Assembly (NCBI GenBank): GCA_016840425.1
Contig: JAEOSI010000008.1
Location: 1-23,414, forward strand
DNA length: 23,414 bases
Source: Candidatus Wukongarchaeum yapensis
GTDB taxonomy: Archaea; Asgardarchaeota; Wukongarchaeia; Wukongarchaeales; Wukongarchaeaceae
Reading direction: 5' to 3'
Below the pieces are notes generated by a model. That model was not told the origin of the DNA, searched no databases, and was given only the letters and a program-made list of their open reading frames with translations. Below, piece after piece: positions 6,980 to 22,245 of this stretch (positions are counted from its first letter, which is position 1; each line of letters begins with the position of its first letter). Made by a program: the position numbers and the translations under genes.

Positions 6980-7123
6980 TGGACCCGGCGGGATTCGAAT
7001 TCGCGAACAAGATGCAAAAACACACCCTGTTACCCGCGGCCTCTGGCTAATCCTGCCAAGGATATAAAGAAAAACATCCCTAGTATGCGAAGCCAGCGCT
7101 CTACCAGGCTGAGCTACGGGCCC
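6980..7123 (-). tRNA. tRNA-Ala(CGC) with introns at 37/38 (7085-7049, 37 nt) and 53/54 (7032-7000, 33 nt)
   Basis: Spliced sequence GGGCCCGTAGCTCAGCCTGGTAGAGCGCTGGCTTCGCAAGCCAGAGGCCGCGGGTTCGAATCCCGCCGGGTCCA has a G3:U70 pair and A73. The second intron has a central CGCG/CGCG helix with GG|T and AA|T bulges. Confidence 0.9.
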
Positions 7124-10489: not shown

Positions 10490-10641
10490 GGGCCCGTAGC
10501 TCAGCCTGGTTAGAGCGCGCGACTGATAACCTTTAACCTCTTCATAAGCTGTAATAAAAGAGGTTAGAAATCGCGACGCACTAATGTTTTAAGATTTTTG
10601 CGCGGTAAAGGTCGAGGGTTCAAATCCCTTCGGGCCCACCA
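10490..10641 (+). tRNA. tRNA-Ile(GAT) with introns at 37/38 (10529-10569, 41 nt) and 43/44 (10576-10608, 33 nt); CCA encoded
   Basis: Spliced sequence GGGCCCGTAGCTCAGCCTGGTTAGAGCGCGCGACTGATAATCGCGAGGTCGAGGGTTCAAATCCCTTCGGGCCCACCA. BHB central helices are CTGA/TTAG and ATCG/CGGT. Confidence 0.92.
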
Positions 10642-20653: not shown

Positions 20654-20850
20654 TAAACAAAGCCACCTTACAACACTAAAAAAACATGGATAAAGTCCTT
20701 TAAAAACAAAAATAAACTATTATTTGCTTATCAAAAAGGACAAAAATTTAAGTTTTTGCTCCCCTTAAAACCTTTTCCCGTTAGAACAACGTGAAGTAGT
20801 GGTTTATCTAAGCGTCTGGACATAGGTGATTCAAATTCATCCCGCATTAT

Positions 20851-21100
20851 CCATATAGGTGTGAAGACTCCGTCCGGAAGGGTGGAAATGAGGGTCCACA
20901 GGCCTTAAATATCTCAGTTTTCTATACTCTAACGAAACAGGCTTTTGGGCTACATGCTCAAGAGTAGGCCTGCCTTGTGCCTGTGGCACGTATAAACAAA
21001 TGGAAGTTAACATGTCCAAAACTCCTCCGATGGAAGGTGAACTTTTAGCAATTCAGAGTGTTAGGGGAGAAGCTCCCTGCGATAGCTGGGAGTAGTTCAC
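20851..21100 (+). mobile_element. Non-autonomous IS200/IS605 derivative (PATE/MITE-like) carrying an orphan omegaRNA-like right end
   Basis: Right end GAAG-CTCCC.GC-GATA-GC.GGGAG-TAGT-TCAC (21069-21100). Left end AAGA-C-TCCGTCC-GGAA-GGGTGGA (20864-20886), preceded by TTAT (20847-20850). Internal GCCTGTGG and hairpin CTTTTGGGC/GCTCAAGAG. Confidence 0.7.
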
Positions 21101-22245
21101 AAGGGCAAATACAAAGTTTGCAGTCTATCTTTCGTGGGATATTCTTCCACAGTAGCACATTTCAGCCCCTTTCTCTTTAAGTAAGGCGCGATTTCCTCCA
21201 AGATATACCAAGCAGTTTCTACACGAACTTTTTTAGGATTTACCCTCAACATTTCCACAGGCACTTCAAAACTCCTCCTTAACATTCGCACTATCCTCTC
21301 CAACTGATCCCTTTCCTCCTCCGAATCTCCTCTGCAAGATATAGTCTCTATAACCCCAAAATACAACAACCCTTCCTCCGTGACCTCTTGGTACGGTCTT
21401 GCAACATTTCTAGCCCTCCTTAACAACCTATTTCTCAACTGTACACCGTCTTTTATCCACGTAGGACAATAATGAACTGAAAGTTTTCTAACGTTTTCCC
21501 TACACCACTCCAAGACCTTCAAAGCTGCCTCTTCGCTACCCTCCACAGCAGCGATAGCTCCCTCCCTCAATCTAAATCCTCTTTTCTCTAACTCCTTAAA
21601 ATTGGTCTCTGAAATCTCCATCTCATTTATATTAAAAAAGTGTACCCCTACCTCCTCTAAATACCTCGCAATCTCAATCAACTTCACCTCTCCCTGCGGT
21701 ATTGCTGGAACCTCCACGCCCACTTTCCAATCATACTCCAAAGCCTCCCTCAAACTTCCAAGGGAAACACGGCTCACCGGATGAAATCTTATCTCATCCA
21801 AACCCGCCTCATAAAGGCTCTCTAATCTCTCTATAGTCGCCATTTTACCCGTAGTATAAAGATGTATATGAAACCCCGCTCCAAACTCCCCTTTCAAAAA
21901 TTTTACATAATGAAGGGTTCTCTCAAAAACCATAAACGGCTCCCCTCCAGTAATCCCGGCTCCTTCAGCTCCACTGATTCTTCCCTCTTTTAAGAGTTCC
22001 TCATCCCTCAAAACCCTCCTTTCATTAGCATAAATCACATCCTTACCCTTTCTCCCTTCTGATAAGGGACAATAATAACATTTTGAATCACAAAGCCCTG
22101 TAACCAAAAGGACAAGTTTAGCCCCTTCTAAACAAAGCTCACAACCTCTGGGAAGCTTCCCAATATAGGGAGAACCCCCAACATTTTTTCGCACTCTTCT
22201 CTTTCTCCCTTTTTTCCCTTCGCTATCACTTCCCTTATCTACCAT
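21097..22245 (-). CDS. Radical SAM protein (COG2108-like)
   Basis: LPRGCELCLEGAKLVLLVTGLCDSKCYYCPLS, GITGGEP, HIHLYT, DEIRFHP. Confidence 0.85.
   Translation of the reverse strand: MVDKGSDSEGKKGRKRRVRKNVGGSPYIGKLPRGCELCLEGAKLVLLVTGLCDSKCYYCPLSEGRKGKDVIYANERRVLRDEELLKEGRISGAEGAGITGGEPFMVFERTLHYVKFLKGEFGAGFHIHLYTTGKMATIERLESLYEAGLDEIRFHPVSRVSLGSLREALEYDWKVGVEVPAIPQGEVKLIEIARYLEEVGVHFFNINEMEISETNFKELEKRGFRLREGAIAAVEGSEEAALKVLEWCRENVRKLSVHYCPTWIKDGVQLRNRLLRRARNVARPYQEVTEEGLLYFGVIETISCRGDSEEERDQLERIVRMLRRSFEVPVEMLRVNPKKVRVETAWYILEEIAPYLKRKGLKCATVEEYPTKDRLQTLYLPL

Follow-up and report, generated by a model that had tools for sequence, protein, structure and literature searches.

The PATEs (palindrome-associated transposable elements) and PATE-like elements, which are known from Haloquadratum walsbyi (PMC3119063), Geobacillus stearothermophilus (PMC10055086), and Halanaerobium hydrogeniformans (PMC7290912), are the described systems closest to the element treated here. 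The fusion of a left end to the tnpB tail and right end by internal deletion has been published for PATEs (PMC3119063, PMC7290912); the Halanaerobium PATE, for example, combines 28 nt from the left end with the final 58 nt of tnpB and the right end (PMC7290912). PATE-like elements encoding omegaRNAs (PMC10055086) and stand-alone omegaRNAs working in trans (PMC10691335) have also been reported, and homing and retention are the published role of omegaRNAs. We analyzed a 23,414-nt stretch of DNA from the Asgard archaeon Candidatus Wukongarchaeum yapensis (contig JAEOSI010000008.1, hereafter the window). The 250-bp stretch at 20851–21100 on the plus strand, lying directly 3′ of a TTAT at 20847–20850 (terminal sequence ...GGGAGTAGTTCAC / ...GCTGGGAGTAGTTCAC), is a non-autonomous, PATE-like IS200/IS605 derivative without a protein gene. 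Its right end supplies the stop codon of a convergent radical SAM gene, and this replacement of a host stop codon is real, documented by a natural empty allele, and recurrent.

As an element type, this gene-less omegaRNA carrier is already known, being PATE-like. Like the PATEs, it lacks genes, terminal inverted repeats, and a target duplication, has subterminal hairpins, and derives from a tnpB element by deletion of the core, with the tnpB tail and the right end kept. Unlike them, it resides in an Asgard host, has the promoter box of the left end directly before the scaffold, belongs to a family that has gained its own hairpin insert of about 30 nt and lost one parental hairpin, and, in the copy studied here, overlaps and replaces a host stop codon. 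The recurrence of this replacement is the modestly new part. The stand-alone omegaRNAs of OMEGA systems (PMC10691335) are similar in that a scaffold without effector or transposase is mobilised while effector-bearing loci exist in the same genome; their function in trans has been shown, whereas that of the mini-element is only inferred.

The element was examined through its DNA sequence, homology, and predicted folds, and the metagenome runs were used as DNA contigs. In the source genome (G000; 2.16 Mb, 277 contigs, 38% G+C; the window is its contig C110), BLAST and profile searches detected five full copies, on contigs C110, C98, C81, C20, and C166, which show 74–83% identity, together with a 5′-truncated copy (C81b), a diverged variant (C7), and fragments (C17 and C116). 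TTAT precedes all five full copies, and TTTTAT precedes four of them. At the other end, the copies all stop at the same C of GTTCAC, and the flanks beyond it are unrelated. The last ~45 nt are common to about 40 places in the genome, all stopping at the same base. Among the 201 Asgard genomes searched, full copies of the 250-bp family are confined to this genus, while the right-end terminus is present in 21. In a congener (G001, completeness 87%), empty sites were found for the copies on C20, C98, and C166. The cleanest of them is that of C20, where G001 reads ...TTTTAT followed by AAAACC... and G000 reads ...TTTTAT, the element, and then GAAATA....

These results agree with the first-pass annotation of the window, which had proposed, from the sequence alone, an IS200/IS605 mini-element inserted 3′ of TTAT: its coordinates and ends are exact, and the further copies with TTAT and TCAC at their ends that it called for exist, as do full-length relatives. 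A different left border, at the TTTAT of 20803–20807, was discarded, all copies and the empty allele placing the border at 20850/20851. A reading of the 32-nt terminal repeat as a CRISPR repeat or a REP sequence was also rejected, as the repeat occurs in single, oriented copies that lie behind tnpB or left ends and terminate at one and the same base.

The element consists of two parts, both of which have counterparts in full-length elements. The left-end-derived part (20851–20933) aligns with left ends genome-wide; in particular, an alignment of the first ~84 nt to the corresponding end of the full-length C265 element shows, as common features, TTTAT followed by CC.., GGGAAGAC, a hairpin with a GAAA or GGAA loop, GATGA, and a TATA-like box. 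Thirteen nucleotides after the TTAT lies a guide tetranucleotide, AAGA (20864–20867), directly 5′ of the left-end hairpin CTCCGTCC-GGAA-GGGTGGAA (20868–20887); the TATA-like box CTTAAATAT follows at 20904–20912 and is the best-conserved left-end block among all copies. The GCC TTA AAT ATC (ALNI) at 20902–20913, which had been taken for the remnant of a tnpB tail, aligns with the TATA-like box of the C265 left end (GAGCTTAAATTAGA), and the real tail starts at about 20934.

The second part (20934–21100) comprises the tnpB 3′ tail, the omegaRNA scaffold, and the right end, as indicated by nhmmer matches to full-length elements, alignments, and the predicted fold. The last ~166 nt share homology with the 3′ tail of tnpB and the right end in the full-length elements on C265, C172, C228, and C216, which match from profile position 81–85 onward. 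The tnpB homology begins at about 20934, with the codons just past the RuvC-III motif (..RDLNGAINIGNRLLGYMLKSR.. / ..NRLLGYMLKSR..), and runs to the right end. The C265 protein (399 aa) carries PF07282, a Cas12f1-like TNB domain, and matches solved TnpB structures. No protein gene was found inside the mini-element, the only overlapping open reading frames (ORFs) being a 60-aa frame starting with TTG on the minus strand and a 40-aa frame starting with GTG on the plus strand (21058–21180). The hairpin GTGCC-TGT-GGCAC (20977–20989) lies within an insert of about 30 nt that only the mini family and C7 possess and that the full-length elements on C265, C228, C216, and C172 lack. The first reading of GCCTGTGG as an omegaRNA likeness did not hold up for the same reason: this sequence is part of that hairpin, which occurs in the mini family only and not in the full-length omegaRNA region.

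The right end (21069–21100) is delimited by the approximately 40 genomic copies, its DNA fold, and UA↔CG covariation in its stem. It consists of a guide tetranucleotide, GAAG (21069–21072), directly followed by the hairpin CTCCCTGC-GATA-GCTGGGAG (21073–21092), a TAGT linker, and the cleavage tetranucleotide TCAC (21097–21100). As DNA, this hairpin folds at −7.8 kcal/mol (z −2.8). The imperfect palindromes near the two ends are similar to each other, as the right-end profile also matches left ends.

The radical SAM gene (21097–22245, minus strand; 382 aa), which is supported by the ORF list, Pfam PF04055, and the conserved ..PL* end of its orthologues, terminates with CCC TTG TGA. The last 4 nt of the element provide this TGA and the G before it; thus, the stop codon (21097–21099) and the last base of the final Leu codon fall inside it. 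On the other side, ATAA, the reverse complement of the TTAT at 20847–20850, corresponds to the third base of the former Leu codon and the original TAA stop. A protein-guided contig scan revealed the natural empty allele in two metagenome contigs (SMTZ1_10004898 and Ga0209427_10005660). Their orthologue of the radical SAM protein is 83% identical, both flanks align, and the 250 bp are absent: the site reads ..ACAGTATTAT joined to AAGGGTAGATACAAAG.., that is, ..TATTAT followed directly by AAGGG.., and the gene ends with CCC TTA TAA. Exactly 250 bp between TTAT and AAGGG distinguish the occupied allele from the empty one, with no target duplication and no terminal inverted repeats. Orthologues from 18 other Asgard genomes nearly all end with ..PL* at the same position.

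The insertion is supported as protein-neutral: the protein remained unchanged because TTA TAA became TTG TGA, the element end TCAC being the reverse complement of GTGA. All of this had been anticipated in the first-pass annotation, namely that the right-end TCAC supplies the Leu-TGA, that removal of 20851–21100 would leave CCC TTA TAA, and that the protein would not be affected; the empty allele reads exactly as foretold.

The insertion is also old. The orthologous site in G001 is occupied, with 89% identity over a 2.8-kb region and 85% over the element, which dates the insertion to before the divergence of the genus's two known species. The first-pass annotation would have been contradicted by relatives carrying the same 250 bp with neither an empty allele nor other copies; G001 does carry the element, but both exist. 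Contigs of four metagenome runs from four studies span both junctions of this copy, and the empty-allele joint occurs in none of the contigs of the four runs, which does not imply its absence, as contigs drop rare variants.

The positional relationship between such elements and stop codons can be generalized. TTAN is the reverse complement of N plus TAA, and TCAC is the reverse complement of G plus TGA in the same phase; therefore, an insertion on the TAA stop of a convergent gene always restores a stop, and its effect on the final sense codon should be limited to the wobble base. On paper, IS608 (TTAC/TCAA) shares this compatibility. Of the 40 right ends in G000, 7 supply the TGA of a convergent ATG-initiated ORF of at least 100 aa, while the other two frames together account for 3. 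Five of the seven ORFs are recognisable: the radical SAM gene on C110 and genes for aIF5B (607 aa), a lipoate-protein ligase, an HD-domain protein, and a B12-binding radical SAM protein; the remaining two are unknown ORFs. The six right ends other than that on C110 are located at C239:1542, C258:1564, C59:7221, C164:6718, C109:1123, and C228:10278 (loci L111, L021, L039, L110, L040, and L041). As background, the stop position is taken by 1.0% of all TTAW sites and by 2.5% of those outside long ORFs, which gives binomial P values of 2e-7 and 6e-5, respectively, on a crude ORF map and for a hypothesis formed post hoc. Among the other Asgard genomes, 4 of 22 right ends supply a convergent stop and none falls in the other frames.

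The aIF5B gene provides a second comparison of alleles. Its site in G001 is empty (..TTTTTAA followed by GTTGCC..), the gene ends with ACT TAA in G001 and with ACG TGA in G000, and in both a reading by hand gives FWAT* for the final four codons. The B12-binding radical SAM gene on C164 was rejected as a clean empty-allele case, G001 having unrelated DNA at the site, and the HD-domain gene on C59 was not found in G001 (87% complete). It is conceivable, though we hold this only tentatively, that, in archaeal genomes dense with genes, the stop-compatible ends open up a harmless niche for landing and that the elements use it often. Simple survivorship is enough for the pattern, as insertions elsewhere in genes would be lost. 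The stop-compatibility point was not found in the literature searched, in a search that was not exhaustive.

IS608 of Helicobacter pylori is the appropriate reference for the ends. It inserts 3′ of a TTAN tetranucleotide and has a right end finishing with TCAN, and the tetranucleotide on the 5′ side of each hairpin foot is able to pair with the cleavage site (guide nt 1, 2, and 4 with site nt 2, 1, and 4), as in the present element. The first-pass annotation had applied this rule to both ends, and it is satisfied by GAAG with TCAC at the right end and by AAGA with TTAT at the left end. Left-end profile searches further divided the elements of G000 into three subfamilies, with TTAT/AAGA in at least 8 elements, TTAA/AAGT in at least 10, and TTAC/AAAG on contigs C70 and C117. 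The fourth positions of the site and the guide covary across the three, and the IS608-type rule thus appears to hold for the element and the subfamilies; TTAC/AAAG is the pair of IS608 itself. The differences from IS608 are that the sites of the mini-element are TTAT and TCAC, that no tnpA lies in or near it, that the hairpin-to-site distances are 17 nt on the left and 4 nt on the right, and that the support for the rule here is sequence covariation. TAM (target-adjacent motif) and TEM (transposon-encoded motif) relationships in IS200/IS605 elements have been discussed (PMC10055086).

The tnpA and tnpB genes that the first-pass annotation expected elsewhere in the genome are present: G000 has 31 matches to TnpB and, besides a Y1 transposase fragment at C117:8445–9990, a single complete Y1 TnpA, at C70:7456–8568, these two being its only Y1 transposase genes. 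The elements bearing them have TAM TTAC and left-end guide AAAG and belong to another subfamily than the mini-element. The pairing at the ends of the mini-element is consistent with mobilisation by a Y1 (HUH) TnpA through guide/site pairing. Separately, at locus L021 (C258) G001 is ~1.2 kb longer than G000 at the orthologous site (G001:C44:6600–9324), G000 having only a short remnant there. The extra sequence matches the right end of a tnpB element, and the site looks like the product of an in-place internal deletion, the route by which such mini-elements arise.

The second part of the element has the geometry of an omegaRNA, in which the tnpB 3′ end and the right end are encoded and the flank after the right end takes the guide position. 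A 187-nt RNA from 20930 has a predicted fold of −59.3 kcal/mol (z −2.5). When 16 mini and full-length copies were aligned, 18 consensus pairs in two stems were predicted, 6 of them with compensatory changes (AU↔GC in the first stem and UA↔CG in the right-end hairpin). The guide-equivalent flank AAGGGCAAATACAAAG (21101–21116) is assigned by its position adjoining the right end and is antisense to the last radical SAM codons. In the empty allele, TTAT is followed by a 14/16 match to this flank; the match to the empty site that had been pointed out earlier is a correspondence by construction. Besides the locus itself, no TTAT-adjacent match to the 16-nt guide equivalent with three or fewer mismatches was found in G000. 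The suggested search of omegaRNA covariance models was negative: Rfam 15 gave no match for the element at the gathering score or at E up to 10, which shows only that no curated model fits. Judging from these features, production of a guide RNA from the element is plausible, while it is doubtful that the C110 copy is still functional.

Full-length TnpBs of the nearest subfamily have open frames on C265 (399 aa) and C172 (386 aa). The parent TnpB subfamily has Gly at the position of the RuvC-II Glu, together with a Glu in an E-x-Y-T-S motif that the Glu-bearing subfamilies lack. All Gly-type TnpBs (C265, C172, C228, C97, C117, C5, and C235) carry a Glu in the E-x-Y/G/N-T-S/T motif, and the Glu-bearing ones (C59, C137, C205, and C275) are without it. 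A rearranged catalytic site of TnpB has been published and fits this exchange (PMC10691335); the idea that the parent TnpB is nuclease-dead was accordingly rejected, as every Gly-type subfamily carries the alternative Glu. On C265 (locus L042, 425–1624), the tnpB frame has no stop in either the omegaRNA region or the right end (which reaches 1600) and terminates in the flank, 24 nt beyond; in the sister copy on C228, the frame terminates 52 nt short of the right end. SisTnpB1 of Sulfolobus islandicus, whose TAM is TTTAA and for which the authors also chose a target beside TTTAT (bioRxiv 10.1101/2023.03.06.531077), is likewise from an archaeal IS200/IS605 element with an AT-rich TAM, and the sister subfamilies of G000 use TTTAA and TTTAT. 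That system is a full tnpB element assayed in vitro, unlike the mini-element, which is the RNA part alone, known from its sequence.

Taken together, the element is very probably an internal-deletion derivative of an IS1341-type (tnpB-only) IS200/IS605 element, that is, a PATE-like, stand-alone omegaRNA element inserted 3′ of TTAT. Its identity, borders, family mobility, empty allele, protein neutrality, and age are observed. Both parts are homologous to a full-length TnpB element; therefore, an internal deletion is likely to have fused the promoter-bearing left end to the omegaRNA region. The deletion would have spared the left end, including its hairpin and TATA-like box, as well as the last ~166 nt of the parent and the right-end hairpin. 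The product would have been inserted as single-stranded DNA 3′ of the TTAT on the strand opposite the radical SAM gene, where TTAT is the reverse complement of A plus TAA and where the TCAC end turned TTA TAA into TTG TGA. The retained box may drive an RNA starting near 20934, and the 3′ part of this RNA (21101–21116) would direct a TnpB encoded at another locus of the genome to the empty site beside TTAT.

Several observations weigh against this derivation and its functional extension. The sole complete TnpA of G000 belongs to the TTAC subfamily. The left-end hairpin of the C110 copy is weak as DNA (−2.2 kcal/mol, z +0.9) because two pairs are now G·T and one pair has been lost; across the family this hairpin is clear, and the G001 copy retains more pairs than the C110 copy. 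The mini family has lost the central GCUCC-GAAA-GGAGA hairpin seen in the omegaRNA region of full-length elements, which makes it uncertain whether the scaffold fits the nearest TnpB. The G000 and G001 copies of the element share 84.7% identity, compared with 83.5% for the adjacent intergenic DNA and 77% for pooled four-fold sites; constraint on the element is therefore weak at best, and its evolution is near neutral. Finally, the copies of G000 differ by 17–26%, which is more than G000 and G001 differ, yet those on C20, C98, and C166 are missing from G001, which a single recent burst does not account for. The choice is between activity of several old master copies and loss from G001 via seamless excision.

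The last point also bears on the possibility that the element was ancestral to all three lineages and that the lineage of the two empty-allele contigs lost it by precise TnpA excision, which resealed TTAT to the flank. Excision of IS200/IS605 elements is seamless (PMC10055086), and old copies with occasional excision would fit the divergence just described. The empty lineage, however, is the most distant of the three (flanks 85–86% versus 89%), a single gain is equally parsimonious, and the orthologues across the phylum end with ..PL* with no sign of the element. We therefore regard ancestral presence followed by loss as rather improbable. Another question is whether the C110 copy is a working stand-alone guide-RNA gene, which would be expressed from its own TATA-like box, use the TnpB of a sister element, and cut empty TTAT-AAGGG sites, so that recombination restores the copy. 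The conservation of the promoter box, a scaffold that is complete up to the right end, the open TnpB frames on C265 and C172, and the published use of such RNAs in trans (PMC10691335) speak for it. So does the history of the site, occupied since before the species split and seen only in its occupied form in four metagenomes, but long occupancy is expected without any TnpB, TnpA being nearly absent. As the divergence is near neutral and the central hairpin of the parental scaffold is lost, an active guide seems to us a possibility on the unlikely side.

Regulation in cis by the transcript, as an antisense RNA acting on the convergent radical SAM mRNA at its 3′ end, is more improbable still, to the extent that we give it little credence. 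The element does read into the last codons of the gene, and a sotRNA of Halobacterium is antisense to the 3′ UTR of its neighbour, with anti-correlated expression (PMC4615843). This geometry is common to any right end adjoining a convergent gene, there is no excess conservation, and the relative with the empty allele has an intact gene without the element. With the derivation from a tnpB element retained, the C110 copy is probably an old, fixed, and largely inert insertion.

Elsewhere in the window, Rfam reported two tRNA matches of ~145 nt against a 71-position model (6980–7123, minus strand, and 10490–10638, plus strand), whose length suggests long introns or inserts; ARAGORN reported no tRNA in the window despite these two matches.

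The element constitutes a clean natural experiment, in which both alleles, occupied and empty, are available, the insertion is dated, and the host protein has stayed the same. For annotation, it means that the stops of real genes, including that of an essential translation factor, lie inside transposon ends. IS200/IS605 elements with TTAN and TCAN at their ends can occupy the stop position of a convergent gene while providing it with a new stop, and such a stop-codon niche would help explain the persistence of hundreds of these elements in compact genomes.

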